Shown: piece after piece, positions 20,974 through 33,038 of the stretch
How positions within the stretch are numbered: the stretch's first letter is position 1
Layout: every line of letters starts with the position of its first letter
Assembly (NCBI GenBank): GCA_902479075.1
Contig: CABSNK010000012.1
Coordinates: 10,498-74,497 of the forward strand
Length of the DNA: 64,000 bases
From: an uncultured Collinsella sp.
GTDB lineage: Bacteria; Actinomycetota; Coriobacteriia; Coriobacteriales; Coriobacteriaceae
Reading direction: 5' to 3'
Notes under the pieces: generated by a model
Database searches by the model: none
The model's input: the letters and a program-made list of their open reading frames with translations, nothing else
Told to the model about the DNA's origin: nothing
Position numbers and translations under genes: made by a program

Positions 20974-21149
20974 CTTAAGTTCCTCCTGCTGCATTTCGAG
21001 TGTCCGCGGGGACGCGGACGCAGATATAGACACGTGAGCTTGAAGATTGTAGGGAAATCAATGTTCAAATGTCAAGAAATCAAAGGTAAAAGGTTGCAGA
21101 GTGTACACGGTTCCCCCATAAGCCCGTGAGCTCTCGGGGCCGACGAAAC

Positions 21150-21300
21150 ACTTTTCACGATATTTCATCGAGTTTTCAACAGGTCATGTTGGCAATGTTG
21201 AGAACTTTTCGCCTGATTTCCAAAGTTTTCAACAGGTTTTGAAAAGTTGTCGAAAGATGAGAAACATTGCGCGCTGAGCTACTATTTGTTCGAAACCTTT
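21150..21300. promoter_or_regulatory. DnaA-box-like cluster / promoter region upstream of the GHKL gene and dnaA
   Basis: TTTTCAACA at 21173-21181 and 21226-21234. TGTTGAGAA (rc TTCTCAACA) at 21196-21204. TTGTCGAAA at 21247-21255. TTTTCACGA at 21152-21160. Each has 1-3 mismatches to TTATCCACA. Confidence 0.55.
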
Positions 21301-21318: not shown

Positions 21319-22671
21319 ATGTCAGACGACTTCTACACCATGGTCGACTCGGGAGACCCGGCACCCGATAACGAGCACATCACCGGTGTGCGCGAAGAGC
21401 GGGTCGCGAGCGACGACGCAGCAAAAAAAGCACCGAGCGCCATGTATGCGGCGCGCATCGCCGTCTACGACGACATGCTGTCGACGCCGCGCGTGATCGT
21501 TATCGAGCCGCAAGACGTCCGTACCTATCTGGAAGAGACGACCAACACCGTCTATCAGTGCATGAAGGAACAGGGCGGTCATATCTCGCTCATGGTGATT
21601 CGCGAGATTGTGGAAAACTTCATCCACGCGCACTTCGCGGAGCCCATCATCTCCATCCTCGATGGGGGCGACACCATTCGCTTTGCCGACCAGGGGCCGG
21701 GCATCGACGACAAGGAGCGCGCCTTCGACTTTGGCGTAACCAGCGCAAATAGCAGCATGAAACGATATATCCGCGGCACTGGAGCCGGTTTCCCCATGGT
21801 GCAGGAGTACCTGGAAAACGCCGGCGGCGCGGTATCGATCGAGGACAATATGGGCAACGGCACCGTCGTGACCGTAAGCCTCAACCCCAAACGCGTGCAG
21901 GAGATCGAGCGCGCCGGTGGACGCGGGGCCGCCGTACGCCCCGAAACGGAGCAGCCGGCATATCCCCAGCCCAGCACCTTTGCGCAGCAGCCGATGGCGA
22001 CGCAACAGATGCAACAGCCTGCAGCATACATGCAGCAGCTGGGAACGTTTCCCACGCAGGAAACCATGGAGCCGTCGGCCCCGATGATGCAAAACATGCC
22101 ACAGGCAATGCCGGCGGCAGACCAGGACCCGACTATCGTGCAGCAAACAGCGGGGACGCCGAACATCCAGCAAATGGGTTATCAACCGTACCCCCAGGGG
22201 TATCCCACCCAGTACATGCCACAACAGGGGTACGCCCAACCGTTTCCGCAGCAGTACCCGCAGGGATATCAACAGCCATACCAGCAGATGCCCCAGACAC
22301 AGTACAGTCCTTGGCCCCAGCAGATGCCGCAACAGCCTTACCAACAGTGGCCGCAAAGTTTTCAACAGCAGATGCCGCCGATGCAGAGTTCTCAACAACC
22401 GGCAGCTCAAATGATGTATCCTAATGCGGCTCAACAGTATTCACAGCCGCCGGCGAACACATACGTAAGCGAACGTGGAAAGAAAGCGCTGGGCTATCTA
22501 GCTCAAAACGAAACATGCGGAGCCACCGACTTGGCACGGGCCCTTGGAAGCTCGGCCCCCACGTGGTCACGCACGCTCAACGACCTGGCGCAAGTTGGTT
22601 TGGTGATCAAGCTCGGCCAGAAATACCATCTGACCGAGCTTGGCAGAGACCGCGTGCAGACGCAGGGTTAA
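21319..22671 (+). CDS. GHKL (HATPase_c-like) ATPase domain + Q/P-rich low-complexity linker + C-terminal winged-helix protein, uncharacterised
   Basis: N box REIVENFIHAH. G1 DQGPGID. G2 GTGAGFPMV..GNGTVVTVSL. About 170 aa of Q/P/Y/M-rich sequence. C-terminal CGATDLARALGSSAPTWSRTLNDLAQVGLVIKLGQKYHLTELG. The stop lies 15 nt before the dnaA start. Confidence 0.75.
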   Translation: MSDDFYTMVDSGDPAPDNEHITGVREERVASDDAAKKAPSAMYAARIAVYDDMLSTPRVIVIEPQDVRTYLEETTNTVYQCMKEQGGHISLMVIREIVENFIHAHFAEPIISILDGGDTIRFADQGPGIDDKERAFDFGVTSANSSMKRYIRGTGAGFPMVQEYLENAGGAVSIEDNMGNGTVVTVSLNPKRVQEIERAGGRGAAVRPETEQPAYPQPSTFAQQPMATQQMQQPAAYMQQLGTFPTQETMEPSAPMMQNMPQAMPAADQDPTIVQQTAGTPNIQQMGYQPYPQGYPTQYMPQQGYAQPFPQQYPQGYQQPYQQMPQTQYSPWPQQMPQQPYQQWPQSFQQQMPPMQSSQQPAAQMMYPNAAQQYSQPPANTYVSERGKKALGYLAQNETCGATDLARALGSSAPTWSRTLNDLAQVGLVIKLGQKYHLTELGRDRVQTQG

Positions 22672-22686
22672 GGAACGGGAGAGACA

Positions 22687-24399
22687 GTGGACGAGGAAGC
22701 AAGCATCATCCTGGGAGACGCCATCGCCTTTTGCCAGCGCGACGGCCAAGATGCGCGCCTCATCAACATGCTGGGGCAATCGCGCGCCGTCAGCCTCACC
22801 GAGGACACCTTGACGATTGAGGCCCCCTCACGGTTTGCCATCGCCCAGCTCAAAAAGCACCAGCCGACCATCGAGGCGTACCTGGAAGAAATCGCTTTTG
22901 CGCCGATCGCGCTCAACATCGTGGCACCCCAAGGCGCCGCGGCAGATAGCGCCGCGTCTGCGGCACCCGTCGTCCCCCCGACGGCGCCCGTGGCAGCCGC
23001 AACGTCGGCTCCCGAACACCAAATCGGCGATGTTTCCCGTGAAACCATGTCTGCCGCACCGACGGCAACGGCTCCCACGCCCCCTGCCACACACATGCCT
23101 ATCGCGCACGACGCAACACCGGGCGAGAATTCGGGCATCGCAATCAAAAATACGCTTTCGGCCGATGATTTCCGCCGCATGATGAATCAGATGAAAGGCG
23201 GCACGCCAGCAAAGAGCGAGCCCCGTGCCACGGCATCGGTCGTGGCAGCCCCGGCATCCGCGGCCGCGGCACCGATCGAGCAGAACACCGATGGCGCGCC
23301 CCTCGCGGCCAACTCAAAATTCACCTTCGAAAACTTTGTCTACGGCCCCGAAAACAGCCACGCCTATCGCTCGGCGCTTAAGTTCGCCGCGCTCGCAGAC
23401 GAACGCGGTACGTGCACGTCCCTGTTCATCTATGGCAAATCGGGCTTGGGCAAGACTCACCTGTTGCTCGCAATAAAAAACGAGCTTGCCGAGAAGTCAC
23501 CCGAGATCAAGGTTAAGTATGCCAACTCGCAGGCATACCTCGATGACTTGATGACGGAGTTCGACCGCCAAAAGAAGAGCAATGCCCCCATCATGCAGGC
23601 ATACCACGGTGTTGACGTGCTCATCATCGACGACATCCAGAACATCATCGGCAAGCGCGCAAGCGTGGACTATTTCTTCCAACTGATGGATGAGTTTATC
23701 CGCAACAATAAAAAAGTCGTGATCGCCGCCGACCGCGCCCCCAAAGACCTAAACATGGACGAGCGTCTGACCAGTCGCTTTAACGCCGGCATGCTCTGTT
23801 TGGTGGCAGAGCCGAGCTATGAGATGAAATACAAGATTTTGCAGCGCTACTACGAAAACACGATCGCGGTATCGCCCGACGCGGACGACGATTCGCTGTT
23901 GGCGGCCTACGGCAGCGACTGCGGTCACTTGACCGACGAGCATTTTAAGCACATGGCCGAGGTCTCGGGCACCAACATCCGCGAGCTCGAGAGCTTTTGC
24001 GAGCGCTGCGCCGGCGAGGCGGGAGACCGCGAGCGCGAGGGCGGGGAGCTCACCTTTGACGACATCGACACCATCGCGAGCCAATACTTCGACACCTCGG
24101 CGAAAAAGATCAACGTGCAGACGGTTCAATCCGTCATCGAGGAGCAGTACGGGGTGACGCATGAGGAACTCATAGGCCCACGCCGCAACGCCAACATTGC
24201 CAAAGCACGTCATATCGCTATCTATCTGGCGATTGAGATGTGCGAGATGACGACCACGGCCGTGGGTGCCGAATTTGGCAACCGTAACCACTCGACCGTC
24301 AGCACGAGCTATAAAAAGGTTCAGAAGATGATCCAAGAAGACCGCACCGTAACCGAGGACCTCAAATCGCTGCGAGACAAAATCACCCTACGCTCGTAG
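22687..24399 (+). CDS. dnaA: Chromosomal replication initiator DnaA (long A/P-rich domain II)
   Basis: FENFVYGPENSHAY, LFIYGKSGLGKTHLL, IDDIQ, C-terminal HTH RHIAIYLAIEM..HSTV. GTG start. Confidence 0.95.
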   Translation: MDEEASIILGDAIAFCQRDGQDARLINMLGQSRAVSLTEDTLTIEAPSRFAIAQLKKHQPTIEAYLEEIAFAPIALNIVAPQGAAADSAASAAPVVPPTAPVAAATSAPEHQIGDVSRETMSAAPTATAPTPPATHMPIAHDATPGENSGIAIKNTLSADDFRRMMNQMKGGTPAKSEPRATASVVAAPASAAAAPIEQNTDGAPLAANSKFTFENFVYGPENSHAYRSALKFAALADERGTCTSLFIYGKSGLGKTHLLLAIKNELAEKSPEIKVKYANSQAYLDDLMTEFDRQKKSNAPIMQAYHGVDVLIIDDIQNIIGKRASVDYFFQLMDEFIRNNKKVVIAADRAPKDLNMDERLTSRFNAGMLCLVAEPSYEMKYKILQRYYENTIAVSPDADDDSLLAAYGSDCGHLTDEHFKHMAEVSGTNIRELESFCERCAGEAGDREREGGELTFDDIDTIASQYFDTSAKKINVQTVQSVIEEQYGVTHEELIGPRRNANIAKARHIAIYLAIEMCEMTTTAVGAEFGNRNHSTVSTSYKKVQKMIQEDRTVTEDLKSLRDKITLRS

Positions 24400-24637
24400 G
24401 AAAATAACCACACCTGTTGATAACTTGTCGAAACCCCGGGCATAAGATGTCTAAAACCAACCGCCCGGTGACGAAAAGTTTTCAGCAGGTTTTGAACGTT
24501 GAAAACGAGGTCGGTTGTACACAGGTTTCTGTCGAATCTCCTTTTAGGTCTGACCAGCGCTTTTGCGAGTATTCGACAGTTTCGTCAGTGTTATTACTAT
24601 TATTAAGATATTTATATCTATAGAAAGGTATTAAAAG
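24400..24637. other. Candidate oriC core: DnaA boxes, triplet (DnaA-trio-like) array and AT-rich unwinding element
   Basis: TGTTGATAA (rc TTATCAACA) 24415-24423. TTGTCGAAA 24425-24433. TTTTCAGCA 24479-24487. TTGTACACA 24515-24523. Inverted CTGTCGAAT pair at 24529-24537 / 24571-24579. TTATTACTATTATTA at 24591-24605. AT-rich run to 24636. Confidence 0.65.
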
Positions 24638-25741
24638 ATGAAGTTCACCGTCAGCCAAAGCTCGCTTACGCAAGCCATCGGCGTCGTCATGAAGGGCGTC
24701 GCTTCGGCATCTACCCTCCCTATCCTGTCGGGTGTGCTCGTCAAGGCGCAAGACGGTATCTTGGAATTTCAGACCTCAAACTACACCATCTCGATTCGCC
24801 ACCGTATCGCCGCCCATGTCGAGGAGGAGGGCGAGATGGTTATTCCCTGCAAGATGCTCTCCAACATCACCAAGACCTTGCCCGACGCTCCGGTCACCTT
24901 TGAGCTCTCCGAGCGCCAGGTGTTGATCGGTTGCGAAAAGAGCTCGTTCCGCCTTAACACGCTCGACGCCAACGACTTTCCGGAGTTTCCGGCCTATGCC
25001 ATCGAGAGTGCCGTCGAGTTGCCGACCGACATCCTGTCCGAGATGGTCGGCCGCGTGTGGCGCGTCACCTCGACCGATAAAGCTCGCCCCATCCTGGGCG
25101 GCGTGCACATGAAGGTCGAGAACAACACCGTGCGCCTGGTGGCGACCGACTCCTTCCGCTTGGCCGTGTGCGACACACAGGTCGAGACCTCGACACTCGA
25201 GGGCTCGTTTGAGCTCAACGTCCCGGCCGATGCCTTTAACGACGCGCTCAGCATTATGGCGAGCCAAGCCACCATCATGATCGGCGCCACCGACACCCAG
25301 GTCGTCTTTGAGGCCGGCAACACCACCTATGTGTCGCGTCGTATCGAGGGCACGTACCCCAACTACAAGCAGCTCATCCCCGATTCGTGCGTGACGAGCG
25401 TCAAGATCGATGTGGCGGCCTTCAACGCCGCCCTGAAGCGCGTTGCCGTTATCGCCAGCGCCAACCCCGCCGTCAAATTCGAGATCGATGTCGAGAACGG
25501 CCAGATGGGCCTGTCCTCCATCTCCAACGACCAGGATCTGGCGCAGGAGACCATTGACGTCGAGGCCGAGGGCGAGTCGGGCACCATCGCCTTCAACTAC
25601 CACTACATCTTCGGCTGTCTCAATGCCCTGTCCAAGGAGAAAGAGATCACGCTGGAGCTCAAGAGCTACTCGCAGGCGGGCATCTTTAAGTCCTACGACA
25701 AGATCAACTACCTGTACCTGGTCATGCCGGTGCGCATCTAG
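24638..25741 (+). CDS. dnaN: DNA polymerase III beta sliding clamp
   Basis: MKFTVSQSSLTQAIGVVMKGV..., three-domain length, position after dnaA. Confidence 0.93.
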   Translation: MKFTVSQSSLTQAIGVVMKGVASASTLPILSGVLVKAQDGILEFQTSNYTISIRHRIAAHVEEEGEMVIPCKMLSNITKTLPDAPVTFELSERQVLIGCEKSSFRLNTLDANDFPEFPAYAIESAVELPTDILSEMVGRVWRVTSTDKARPILGGVHMKVENNTVRLVATDSFRLAVCDTQVETSTLEGSFELNVPADAFNDALSIMASQATIMIGATDTQVVFEAGNTTYVSRRIEGTYPNYKQLIPDSCVTSVKIDVAAFNAALKRVAVIASANPAVKFEIDVENGQMGLSSISNDQDLAQETIDVEAEGESGTIAFNYHYIFGCLNALSKEKEITLELKSYSQAGIFKSYDKINYLYLVMPVRI

Positions 25742-25750
25742 CGTCTATCG

Positions 25751-26857
25751 ATGGCTATGTTCGCCCACGAGCTTTCCGTCGCGCACTACCGCAGCTTCGA
25801 CCGTTATCGTCTGACCCTGAGCGGCGGCGTGACGGTGCTCGCGGGACCCAACGCGGCGGGGAAGACCAACCTCATAGAGGCGCTGCAGCTGCTGACGAGC
25901 GGCACCTCGTTTAGGCATCCGACCGCTGCCGAGCTCGTGCGCGACGGCGTGGGCTCGTGCAAGGTCGAGCTGAGGCTCGAGGGCGATGGACGCGTGCTGG
26001 ACATGGGGCTGTGCGTAGAGGACGGCAAGCGCTCGTTTAGCCGTAACGGCAAGCGGTGCGCGGCCGCCGGCGTGCGCGGTGTGCTGCCGAGCGTTCTGTT
26101 TTGCCCGGACCACCTGGATATGGTCAAGCGTGGCGCCAGCGTCCGCCGCGCCGCGCTCGACGACTTTGGCGTGCAGCTGAGTGCACGCTACGCCGACCTT
26201 TCGAGCACCTATGGCCGCTGCGTGACGCAGCGCAACGCCCTGCTCAAGGAGAGCTGGTGCTGCCGCGAGATGCTTGGCGCCTGGAATGAATCGCTTGCCC
26301 GTGCGGGCTCGGCACTGCTCGTGCATCGTTTGGCCCTGGTCGACCGACTGGCGGGCCATGTGCGCGATGCTTACGGACAAGTGGCGTCCGGCGAGCCCGC
26401 GGACGTGTCCTACGTGTCCACGCTGGGGGATTTGCCCCAGACCGAGGACCGAGAAGAGCTGAAGGGCTGGGCGTACGAGCGCATGTTGGCGACGCTCGAC
26501 GAGCGCGCCGACGAGGAGATGCGCCGCGGCGTGACGCTTGTGGGGCCGCATCGCGACGAGATCGAGTTTTCCGTTGCAGGGCGGTCTGCCCGTTCATTTG
26601 CCAGCCAGGGGCAGCAGCGTACGCTGGTGCTGGCCTGGAAGGTGGCGGAGGTGGCCGTTGCCCGCGGCATTTTGGGCACTGCACCGCTGCTGCTGTTGGA
26701 TGACGTGATGAGCGAGCTCGACGCCGGGCGCCGAGACGCTTTTCTGCAGTTGATCGGCGATGATATCCAGACGGTCATAACCACCACCAATCTGGGGTAC
26801 TTTACCGATGACCTGCTTGATCGAGCCAAGGTGGTGAGCATGGGTGAGGCGTGCTAA
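25751..26857 (+). CDS. recF: DNA replication and repair protein RecF
   Basis: LAGPNAAGKTNLIEAL Walker A, SQGQQRTLVLAWK signature, LLLDDVMSELD. Confidence 0.93.
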   Translation: MAMFAHELSVAHYRSFDRYRLTLSGGVTVLAGPNAAGKTNLIEALQLLTSGTSFRHPTAAELVRDGVGSCKVELRLEGDGRVLDMGLCVEDGKRSFSRNGKRCAAAGVRGVLPSVLFCPDHLDMVKRGASVRRAALDDFGVQLSARYADLSSTYGRCVTQRNALLKESWCCREMLGAWNESLARAGSALLVHRLALVDRLAGHVRDAYGQVASGEPADVSYVSTLGDLPQTEDREELKGWAYERMLATLDERADEEMRRGVTLVGPHRDEIEFSVAGRSARSFASQGQQRTLVLAWKVAEVAVARGILGTAPLLLLDDVMSELDAGRRDAFLQLIGDDIQTVITTTNLGYFTDDLLDRAKVVSMGEAC

Positions 26858-27407
26858 TTATGAGCGCGAGAACGGCACGGTTGCTTTCGGCGGCTTTCTA
26901 GATGCCGAACGCCAGCGCATTTTGGCCGCGGCGACACCGGAACGCCGTGCCCAAATGGAGGCCGCCGAGCAATCGCGCGCAATCTATCGCGCCTGGAACA
27001 CGGTGTGCGCGGGAACGCGCGAAGGGCGCCATGTGACGGGTCTGCGCTATCTGCCCGAGTCCAACGAGCTGTTGGTGTATCTCGACTCGCCCTCGTGGAC
27101 GCAGGAAATGACGCTGCTGCGCGAGATCATCCGCGCGCGCATGGAGCGCGTCGGCGCACATGTCGACGGCCTGGTGTTCAAAACGACCGCCCCCGGCCAC
27201 ACGCCGCCCGCCGCCAAGGAGCGCCTGCGGCCGGCCGAGATTGAGCGCCCGCCGGCTCCGCATGCCGACCTCAGCGAGTCCGAGCGCGCCGAGATCGAGC
27301 GCCAAGTGGCACCCATCGAAGACCAAAAACTGCGCGAGGCCCTCGAGAATGCCATGAGAGCCAGTGCCGAGTGGGCCAAGGGCGTGCAGAGCAAAAAAGA
27401 GCCTTAA
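26844..27407 (+). CDS. DUF721 / DciA-like protein (recF-gyrB interval)
   Basis: Conserved actinobacterial position between recF and gyrB. LLVYLDSPSWTQEMTLLREIIRARM resembles DUF721. Start uncertain (GTG 26844). Confidence 0.6.
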   Translation: MRRANYERENGTVAFGGFLDAERQRILAAATPERRAQMEAAEQSRAIYRAWNTVCAGTREGRHVTGLRYLPESNELLVYLDSPSWTQEMTLLREIIRARMERVGAHVDGLVFKTTAPGHTPPAAKERLRPAEIERPPAPHADLSESERAEIERQVAPIEDQKLREALENAMRASAEWAKGVQSKKEP

Positions 27408-32737: not shown

Positions 32738-32814
32738 GGACCTGTAGCTCAGTTGGTTAGAGCGTCCGGCTGATAACCGGGAGGTCACAAGTTCGAATCT
32801 TGTCAGGTCCACCA
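32738..32814 (+). tRNA. tRNA-Ile (GAT)
   Basis: GGACCTGTAGCTCAGTTGGTTAGAGC...CTGATAA anticodon loop...GGTTCGAATC..CCACCA. Confidence 0.93.
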
Positions 32815-32825
32815 CTTTCTTTCGC

Positions 32826-32870
32826 AATAAACACCCCAGCGAGAGCCGAGTCGCCGCTGGGGTGTTTATT
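32826..32870. repeat. 16-bp perfect stem hairpin between tRNA-Ile and tRNA-Ala
   Basis: AATAAACACCCCAGCG (32826-32841) pairs with CGCTGGGGTGTTTATT (32855-32870). Confidence 0.85.
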
Positions 32871-32881
32871 ACTGTCTCCGT

Positions 32882-32957
32882 GGGGGTTTAGCTCAGCTGG
32901 GAGAGCGCGGGCTTTGCAAGCCTGAGGTCAGGGGTTCGATCCCCCTAACCTCCACCA
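32882..32957 (+). tRNA. tRNA-Ala (TGC)
   Basis: GGGGGTTTAGCTCAGCTGGGAGAGC..TTTGCAA loop. G3:U70 pair present. CCA encoded. Confidence 0.93.
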
Positions 32958-32961
32958 TGAT

Positions 32962-33038
32962 GGACCTGTAGCTCAGTTGGTTAGAGCGTCCGGCTGATAA
33001 CCGGGAGGTCACAAGTTCGAATCTTGTCAGGTCCACCA
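32962..33038 (+). tRNA. tRNA-Ile (GAT), identical second copy
   Basis: 77/77 identical to 32738-32814. Confidence 0.93.

Follow-up and report, generated by a model that had tools for sequence, protein, structure and literature searches.

A histidine-kinase-like ATP-binding domain tethered to a winged helix and encoded between rpmH and dnaA: a candidate lineage-specific player at the chromosome origin of Coriobacteriia

What might a conserved protein do whose gene sits between rpmH and dnaA, directly upstream of the gene for the replication initiator? The question is raised by a stretch of 64,000 nucleotides from an uncultured Collinsella sp. (assembly GCA_902479075.1, contig CABSNK010000012.1, positions 10,498 to 74,497), called the window from here on, with positions counted from its first letter. 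An open reading frame (ORF) with an ATG start occupies positions 21319 to 22671 of the plus strand and encodes 450 amino acids (aa); we refer to it as gene X and to its product as protein X. Its divergent 5' neighbor is rpmH, encoding ribosomal protein L34 (20839 to 20973, minus strand; Pfam Ribosomal_L34, E=9e-25), and it is followed by dnaA (22687 to 24399, plus strand, GTG start, 570 aa; Pfam Bac_DnaA, E=8e-42, and Bac_DnaA_C, E=8e-21). The gene is real, having about 2000 homologues and two folded parts that AlphaFold2 (AF2) models with high confidence. An original prediction, made from the letters of the window, had given the coordinates and placement of these 450 codons exactly, and the peptides that it quoted are all found in the translation (REIVENFIHAH at aa 95 to 105, DQGPGID at aa 124 to 130, GTGAGFPMV at aa 153 to 161, GNGTVVTVSL at aa 179 to 188, and a winged-helix string at aa 400 to 442). 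Our answer, given tentatively and at slightly less than an even chance, is that protein X acts as an ATP-dependent, DNA-tethered regulator at the dnaA/oriC region; its suggested role in initiation or origin organization comes from synteny and conservation.

To evaluate the distribution of the family, we ran an exhaustive HMMER scan over 1.84 billion cluster representatives with aa 1 to 205 as the query. At E<1e-30 it returned 255 clusters (50% identity), and the conserved region corresponded to aa 44 to 192. Every named member belongs to the Coriobacteriia, including Collinsella, Coriobacteriaceae, Atopobiaceae, Coriobacteriales and Raoultibacter (Eggerthellales). A scan of a genome collection with the Collinsella sequence gave the same picture at closer range, as 80 of the 80 listed matches were from Collinsella or Coriobacteriaceae, with the N-terminal half 100% identical in two contigs from metagenome-assembled genomes (MAGs). 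The source labels are generic, being "ATP-binding protein" at NCBI and [quoted passage not shown] or, for some members, "anti-sigma regulatory factor (Ser/Thr protein kinase)" at JGI. No model specific to the family was found in NCBIfam or Pfam (the best NCBIfam matches are generic histidine kinase [HK] families, far under their cut-offs), and a full-text literature search found no paper on protein X, so the description of the family as uncharacterized in the original prediction stands.

The position of the gene is as constant as its sequence is recognizable. All eight loci inspected individually, from four sequence subgroups, have rpmH on the minus strand followed on the plus strand by X, dnaA, dnaN and recF. 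The wider census comprised 171 fetched loci, which dereplicate at 85% core identity to 20 lineages with a locus GC content of 36 to 64%. Here rpmH is divergent and 5' of X in 145/145 loci, dnaA lies 3' on the same strand in all 137 with enough downstream sequence, and no copy of X in any other context was found among the 171 loci and 20 lineages. Absence from this locus in close relatives had been named beforehand as an observation that would count against a role at the origin, and gene X was present there in every relative examined. Of a divergent long subfamily (cluster 10, 299 to 708 aa), no members were listed by a search with profile A2, and the best that a metagenome scan with profile A3 yielded was a single locus at 68% identity (L092), in which synteny is kept. 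The family thus appears to be uncharacterized, single-copy, confined to Coriobacteriia as far as sampled and fixed at the origin locus. As a side note on sampling, the contig of a MAG that NCBI labels "Raoultibacter sp." (L090, protein P0468) has only 37% GC, and L089 to L091 all have 36 to 37%, which would mean either that the class includes low-GC lineages or that the MAG is imprecisely labeled.

Conservation sets the protein apart within its own locus. The core of protein X is more conserved than DnaA (AAA+/domain IV) and DnaN in 75/75 lineage pairs, with median pairwise identities of 0.57, 0.37 and 0.40, respectively, and L34 alone exceeds it. This bears on an alternative that sees in X a one-component transcription factor or nucleoid-associated protein of the ordinary kind, with a regulon unrelated to replication, its position being a frozen accident or bringing a dosage or expression benefit near the origin. 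The gene order on both sides of X (parAB-gidB-jag-yidC-rnpA-rpmH and dnaA-dnaN-recF-gyrB) is notoriously stable, and an early insertion in the class could persist in it. However, winning all 75 comparisons against DnaA and DnaN is atypical of accessory regulators, and the gene was never lost, duplicated or moved in the 20 lineages and 171 loci. We consider this alternative unlikely, and return to it below with the DNA-binding domain, the tether and the upstream sites. A separate observation concerns DnaA itself, which evolves unusually fast in the class (AAA+ to domain IV about 37% identical in the median between lineages); in Collinsella, the domain IV motif reads NHSTV, the usual motif being DHTTV.

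The conserved core (aa 44 to 192; 21448 to 21894, plus strand) consists of an N-terminal beta-beta-alpha element followed by a Bergerat fold, as seen in the alignment and in AF2 and Foldseek results, with the N box at 21601 to 21633, G1 at 21688 to 21708 and G2 at 21775 to 21801. Pfam HATPase_c (PF02518) matches aa 93 to 189 (E=8e-11; 42.8 bits versus a gathering score of 26.4) and also each of the 29 diverse cores in our alignment A1, which are 47 to 82% identical to the core of the window. Invariant in A1 are E56, E59, N60 and H63 of the N box, D84, G86, P87 and G88 of G1 and G113, G115 and G117 of G2. The N-terminal motif ARIAVYDD..PRV, which corresponds to no Pfam family, is likewise conserved, with D11 and P17 invariant and most other positions at 90% or more. 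The nucleotide pocket is under strict selection, since the ATP-contacting residues are invariant in the 29 cores.

The AF2 model of the core (predicted local distance difference test [pLDDT] 87.7, predicted template modeling score 0.84) has the element order beta-beta-alpha, N-box helix, beta-beta, lid, alpha, beta-beta. Its nearest structures in Foldseek are the catalytic and ATP-binding (CA) domains of HKs (EnvZ chimera, HK853, CpxA) and branched-chain alpha-ketoacid dehydrogenase (BCKD) kinase, with a probability of 1.00 to many HK CA domains and TMq of 0.45 to 0.55, and none of GyrB, MutL and Hsp90 is among the top 50 matches. Sequence and profile searches point the same way (HK853, 4e-4; KinB, 8e-6; also CheA), with an additional local profile similarity to MutL in the stretch from the N box to G1 (E=4.5e-4). 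No HisKA, HisKA_3 or HWE match was found at E<10 in protein X or in the 29 cores, and the segment ahead of the N-box helix is predicted to be beta-beta-alpha, not a helical hairpin. HATPase_c_2 (PF13581), the anti-sigma type, matches one of the 29 cores, at E=0.097. On the strength of the models and searches, we assign the core as a nucleotide-binding GHKL domain of the HK CA type, not GyrB, MutL or Hsp90-like, and we infer that protein X binds ATP. The original prediction had named a GHKL-ATPase without the dimerization and histidine phosphotransfer (DHp) domain. The GHKL fold and the lack of DHp both hold, the former refined to HK-CA-like by the sequence and fold matches; the ATPase label is unproven, a kinase or a plain nucleotide switch being equally possible.

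This kinship is the starting point of a different explanation, namely that X might be a DNA-tethered protein kinase or partner-switching module (compare SpoIIAB/RsbW, BCKD kinase and pyruvate dehydrogenase kinase) that phosphorylates or sequesters DnaA, a sigma factor or a STAS-like protein, the winged helix only localizing it. Such a role would agree with the closest folds and sequences (HK853, CpxA, EnvZ, KinB, CheA and BCKD kinase), with a stand-alone module of about 150 aa that has no DHp and carries a beta-alpha element before the N-box helix, and with the Ser/Thr kinase label that JGI auto-annotation gave to some members. The extreme conservation of the whole core surface, combined with an unconstrained tether, would also suit an enzyme working on a conserved partner. 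But the single HATPase_c_2 match speaks against it, STAS, sigma-factor and PP2C genes are absent from all inspected neighborhoods, and DnaA, which would be the obvious substrate at this locus, changes much faster than X does. We regard a tethered kinase or partner-switching module as improbable, and keep to the ATP-dependent regulator at the origin as our preferred reading.

At the other end of the protein, aa 385 to 445 (22471 to 22653, plus strand) form a winged helix-turn-helix (wHTH), as judged from weak Pfam matches, AF2 and Foldseek. The AF2 model (pLDDT 92.3) has the topology H-H-H-E-E-H, and its Foldseek template modeling (TM) scores are 0.81 to 0.83 to the wHTH of Csa3 (26 to 27% identity) and 0.73 to 0.83 to MarR, MepR and TcaR. 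The AF2 fold and the TM scores of about 0.8 agree with the C-terminal wHTH claimed at the outset. None of the Pfam wHTH families reaches its curated threshold in protein X (the best, HVO_A0261_N, scores 29.6 bits against a gathering score of 35, with MarR_2, IclR, Crp and ArsR below), whereas many relatives do have precomputed PF25213 matches. In the domain census, based on the best 149 representatives, a profile search finds the wHTH in 116; the other 33 have no profile-detectable wHTH, and most of them appear frameshifted or truncated when their C termini are inspected. The domain appears to lack the dimerization helices of MarR-type proteins. Its kinship with MarR- and Csa3-type ligand-responsive regulators, together with a recognition helix that differs between subfamilies, is what one would expect of the ordinary regulator with an unrelated regulon discussed above. 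A defense-system identity was dismissed, as the PADLOC match is limited to the generic wHTH of CasR/Csa3.

Between the two folded parts, the core passes straight into a low-complexity linker rich in Q, P, M and Y and predicted to be disordered (aa 193 to 384; 21895 to 22470, plus strand), in which neither a Pfam match nor a transducer (ribosomal-S5-fold) domain was found. The composition of aa 205 to 384 (28% Q, 18% P, 9% M and 8% Y, nearly uncharged) bears out the Q/P-rich linker that had been described. Across the best 149 representatives, its length ranges from 9 to 361 aa. This variation of about 40-fold marks it as what looks like a disordered tether of nearly arbitrary length. It is the least conserved part of protein X, and in Atopobiaceae-type members, where the whole protein has only 240 to 277 aa, it shortens to 9 to 30 aa. 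The N-terminal tail ahead of the core (aa 1 to 43; 21319 to 21447, plus strand) is acidic, with a net charge of -6, and also variable, with 12 to 221 aa in relatives. In one Atopobiaceae MAG (L083, 5001 to 5923), two adjoining ORFs are called instead of one, the first for an ATP module of 212 aa and the second for a wHTH of 69 aa, owing either to an assembly frameshift or to a genuine split.

Because the tether length is unconstrained, classical allostery from a sensor to the HTH seems improbable, which is a further point against X as an ordinary one-component regulator. The linker bears on yet another possibility, that of a catalytically dead structural or condensate-forming origin protein with a fossil GHKL pocket, whose function would reside in the Q/P/Y-rich region and the wHTH. 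The Collinsella linker is indeed prion-like, with the Q, P and Y contents just given and near-zero charge. Yet all the ATP-contacting residues are invariant across the family, and the part that should carry the function is the least conserved one, down to the 9 to 30 aa of the Atopobiaceae-type members, so that we give this explanation very little credence. The tether fits our preferred regulator at the dnaA/oriC region in the forms set out below.

The DNA upstream of gene X carries a cluster of DnaA-box-like sites (21150 to 21260 in the box scans). They are TTTTCAACA at 21173 to 21181 (plus strand), TTCTCAACA at 21196 to 21204 (minus), TTTTCAACA again at 21226 to 21234 (plus) and TTTTCAAAA at 21237 to 21245 (minus); half-box-like ACTTTTCAC and TTGTCGAAA elements are also found in this rpmH-X spacer. 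The presence of such sites upstream of X had been predicted, and counting boxes with one mismatch at most, the densest 300-bp bin of the whole window is 21001 to 21300 (four sites, 21173 to 21245), followed by the spacer between dnaA and dnaN. The pattern TTWTCMACA has five matches in the 64 kb versus 0.92 expected, and none of 100 shuffles reached five. Across the family, TT[AT]TCNACA occurs in one to five copies in the rpmH-X spacer of 20/20 lineages, with at most 0.12 expected in each. The boxes are typically TTTTCAACA, often as a facing pair about 22 nucleotides (nt) apart, and the prevailing box in the class is TTTTC(A/C/G)ACA rather than TTATCCACA. The canonical TTATCCACA takes these box positions in some lineages (L081 and L086), which is why we identify the rpmH-X sites as DnaA-box variants. 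Since DnaA boxes lie upstream of it, gene X is probably part of the DnaA regulon, and the fact that such boxes always precede X is the last of the points that speak against a regulon unrelated to replication. A further match, at 21609 to 21617 (minus strand), lies inside the core ORF. We rejected it as a functional DnaA box, considering it a coding coincidence: the codons of the invariant I-V-E-N read ATTGTGGAAAAC, which is complementary to a DnaA box (TTTTCCACA), and TGTCGAAAA or TGTGGAAAA recurs at these codons in most Collinsella loci.

A sigma-70 scan found no plus-strand promoter for X or dnaA, and the only element that could be proposed is a candidate -10 of X with two mismatches, TACTAT, at 21280 to 21285 (plus strand), about 33 nt 5' of the ATG. 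The Collinsella clade keeps this hexamer, and other lineages have TAnnAT-type hexamers at the same position. In the opposite direction, rpmH has a strong promoter-like site, TTGACA-18-TACAAT (21046 to 21075, minus strand), which fits 11 of 12 consensus positions and whose -10 (AGATTGTA on the plus strand) recurs in 12/20 lineages.

The stop codon of X (22669 to 22671) is separated from the GTG of dnaA (22687) by 15 nt, as had been claimed, and this gap contains the Shine-Dalgarno sequence of dnaA, GGGAGAG (22677 to 22683, plus strand). No plus-strand terminator was found between X and dnaA in the window, and the last 430 nt of X contain no -10 that comes within one mismatch of TATAAT. Because of the short gap and these two absences, cotranscription of X and dnaA by read-through from the X promoter is the simplest model for the window. 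Other lineages are organized differently. X-dnaA gaps of 70 nt or more usually contain one to three plus-strand boxes flanking TATAAT or TATACT (gaps of 70 to 205 nt with their own promoter in L094, L093, L102, L095, L097, L098 and L091). These gaps apparently hold a dedicated, DnaA-autoregulated dnaA promoter that is missing in the Collinsella clade. The cotranscription proposed in the original prediction can thus be kept for the window but not as a family trait, and the gene's placement "in the initiator operon" would describe the state of the Collinsella clade rather than a rule of the family.

DnaA boxes also occur within the gene. The linker-coding DNA contains TTTTCAACA at 22359 to 22367 and, 30 nt 3' of it, the one-mismatch copy TTCTCAACA at 22389 to 22397. 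The first of these is kept in 121/131 Collinsella-like loci, and shares the 12-mer AGTTTTCAACAG with both upstream TTTTCAACA boxes. At the same place (about 314 to 359 nt before the X stop in L142), three boxes, all on one strand and 22 to 23 nt apart, are found in the sister lineage L142/L146, where they encode the peptide GFSTT..GFQQS..EFSTI. The linker boxes give the impression of regulatory DNA superimposed on an ORF under weak constraint. In another locus (L141), X (327 aa) ends before the internal boxes, through an assembly frameshift or genuinely.

On the far side of dnaA, the spacer to dnaN (24400 to 24637) is the putative unwinding part of oriC, judging by its boxes, a trio-like array and an AT-rich tract. 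It holds TTATCAACA at 24415 to 24423 (minus strand), one-mismatch boxes at 24479 (plus) and 24497 (minus), the box-like TATTCGACA at 24570 to 24578 and, at 24591 to 24605, TTATTACTATTATTA, whose complement (3'-AAT AAT GAT AAT AAT-5') resembles a DnaA-trio array; the AT-rich tract follows, just 5' of dnaN. A promoter-like site, TCGACA-16-TACTAT (24573 to 24600), overlaps the box-like and trio region. Trio-like arrays were found in this spacer in 7/18 lineages, always 42 to 62 nt from dnaN, and in the rpmH-X spacer in 0/20. As they are found only in the dnaA-dnaN spacer, the unwinding element of oriC most likely lies downstream of dnaA, and 24570 to 24630 is a candidate for its basal unwinding system. 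Gene X and dnaA would then be bracketed by two DnaA-box clusters, which suggests a bipartite-origin layout.

With this layout, the reading that we prefer, an ATP-dependent and DNA-tethered regulator at the dnaA/oriC region, can be put as a mechanism. X would be transcribed from a promoter just 3' of the DnaA-box cluster, and hence be controlled by DnaA, and in Collinsella the transcript would run on into dnaA. The ATP module would not be an allosteric sensor wired to the wHTH. It may instead dimerize under the control of ATP, so that two weak monomeric wHTHs become a single bivalent binder or bridge of DNA, or it may use ATP, as an ATPase or a kinase, while the wHTH keeps it on DNA. Because of the position of the locus, the dnaA promoter and origin region, with the DnaA-box regions around X-dnaA, would be the likeliest site of action, where X may adjust the expression of dnaA, the architecture of the bipartite origin or both to the nucleotide state of the cell. 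A stronger version would make X an essential, Coriobacteriia-specific component of initiation, either as an ATP-gated dimer bridging the bracketing DnaA-box clusters or by acting on DnaA, and so setting orisome architecture and initiation frequency by cellular ATP; this we find distinctly more doubtful, if still somewhat likelier than the tethered kinase or the unrelated regulator.

Several points weigh against a regulator of this kind. Origin-proximal synteny (rpmH, dnaA, dnaN, recF) is generally very stable, which makes adjacency weak functional evidence. The closest relatives of the core are kinases, not dimerizing ATPases, and there is no transducer domain. The recognition helix of the wHTH varies by subfamily (S.PTWSREL, ATASRRL, SSTH.TL) while TTTTCAACA-type boxes are constant everywhere, so protein X itself probably does not read the DnaA box. 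We likewise considered and set aside the TTTTCAACA sites as sites of X; this is unlikely, given that the helix changes while the boxes do not and that the canonical TTATCCACA replaces them at the same positions in some lineages. Nor was a separate shared operator of X found by a k-mer census and inspection of the spacers, which returned only an extended box (GAAAGTTTTCAACA), abundant TTTCA/GAAA elements and the rpmH -10. Finally, presence throughout the class and absence outside Coriobacteriia hold only as far as sampled, the genome scan having listed Collinsella loci.

Apart from gene X, the window has the standard origin-proximal gene order. The genes parB, parA, gidB, jag, yidC, yidD, rnpA and rpmH are on the minus strand and dnaA, dnaN, recF, dciA, gyrB and gyrA on the plus strand, with Pfam matches confirming L34, RnpA, DnaA, DnaN, RecF, DciA and GyrB. 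The dnaN gene (24638 to 25741, plus strand) matches Pfam DNA_pol3_beta domains 1 to 3, and the ORF 3' of recF in the plus-side series (26844 to 27407) matches DciA (E=4e-6), the helicase-loader family of bacteria without DnaC/DnaI. A contiguous initiation toolkit (X, DnaA, DnaN, RecF, DciA and GyrB/A) is thus encoded in the window. The cumulative GC skew is weak, with its minimum at about 32 to 36 kb, where a tRNA cluster lies (32738 to 33035), and not at the dnaA locus; the gene-strand switch is at 21 kb. An RNA element in the 20.7-to-24.7-kb region was dismissed, as a Rfam scan of that region gave no matches.

Coriobacteriia are a major human gut class, including Collinsella, Eggerthella and Atopobiaceae. 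The regulators of DnaA and oriC are clade specific and known almost only from model Proteobacteria and Firmicutes and a few Actinobacteria, and we know of none for Coriobacteriia. Protein X offers a sharply defined and testable case, as its gene stays in the rpmH-dnaA interval, is preceded by DnaA boxes and outconserves DnaA and DnaN, and a nucleotide pocket and a DNA-binding domain come together in its product; X is thus well qualified as a candidate for a new, lineage-specific factor at the chromosome origin. The comparison also provides a first sequence-level picture of the origin in this class, with a TTTTC(A/C/G)ACA box, clusters on both sides of dnaA, a trio-like array near dnaN and boxes in linker-coding DNA. 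If the initiation reading is true, initiation in these bacteria, with their unusually fast-evolving DnaA, would involve a regulator of a new class that is embedded in the origin itself. Even with no link to replication, X would stand as a one-component protein of new architecture, in which a disordered tether joins an HK CA-like domain to a wHTH.

Among known systems, the HK CA domains (HK853, CpxA, EnvZ, KinB) are the source of the best sequence and fold matches of the core, and share with it the Bergerat alpha/beta sandwich, the N box ExxEN, G1 DxGxG, an F-box-like segment, G2 GxGxG and a short ATP lid. Unlike them, protein X has the family-specific N-terminal beta-beta-alpha element (ARIAVYDD..PRV) and continues by way of a disordered linker into a wHTH. 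Two-component HKs differ further in having a DHp/HisKA hairpin with a phospho-acceptor His domain, a sensor or transmembrane part and a nearby response regulator. No response-regulator gene adjoins X, whose neighbors are rpmH and dnaA in all loci, and with no DHp and no adjacent response regulator we rejected protein X as a two-component histidine kinase. The anti-sigma serine kinases SpoIIAB and RsbW are closer in layout, being stand-alone GHKL modules of about 150 aa without DHp, and SpoIIAB has a strand and a helix ahead of the N-box helix, resembling the core of X. Here the differences are that X has neither a significant PF13581 match nor sigma or STAS partner genes and that it has a DNA-binding domain. 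An identity as a kinase of the SpoIIAB/RsbW type was rejected on the first two of these grounds.

From the MutL/GyrB/Hsp90/MORC group, our preferred model borrows the idea of ATP-driven N-terminal dimerization. The likeness in sequence lies in the local match to MutL from the N box to G1, with (K/R)E(L/I)VEN common to both, whereas the lid and G2 of X are HK- or CheA-like. Protein X was rejected as a MutL/GyrB-type ATPase because it has no transducer (S5-fold) domain and the group is absent from the top 50 fold matches.

With the known regulators of the origin and of DnaA (SirA, YabA and Soj of Bacillus subtilis; SeqA, DiaA and Hda of Escherichia coli; MtrA of Mycobacterium tuberculosis; AdpA of Streptomyces; HP1021 of Helicobacter pylori; CtrA of Caulobacter), X would share a clade-restricted modulation of initiation, and binding of AdpA to oriC is reported to be ATP sensitive. 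In sequence and domains they are no kin of X, as none of these families appeared in the Pfam and NCBIfam scans of the protein, and to our knowledge none of them is encoded between rpmH and dnaA. The closest parallel in logic is provided by one-component regulators that join a ligand sensor to a wHTH. Csa3/CasR (CARF-wHTH) proteins have an N-terminal nucleotide-ligand domain and a C-terminal wHTH, and Csa3 is also the closest structure to the wHTH of X. They differ in that the sensor of X is GHKL and not CARF, its tether is long and disordered and its context is the replication origin and not CRISPR. By this analogy protein X most resembles regulators such as Csa3, and its sequence marks it as an uncharacterized family with a new architecture within the GHKL and wHTH superfamilies and a unique, invariant position embedded in the origin.

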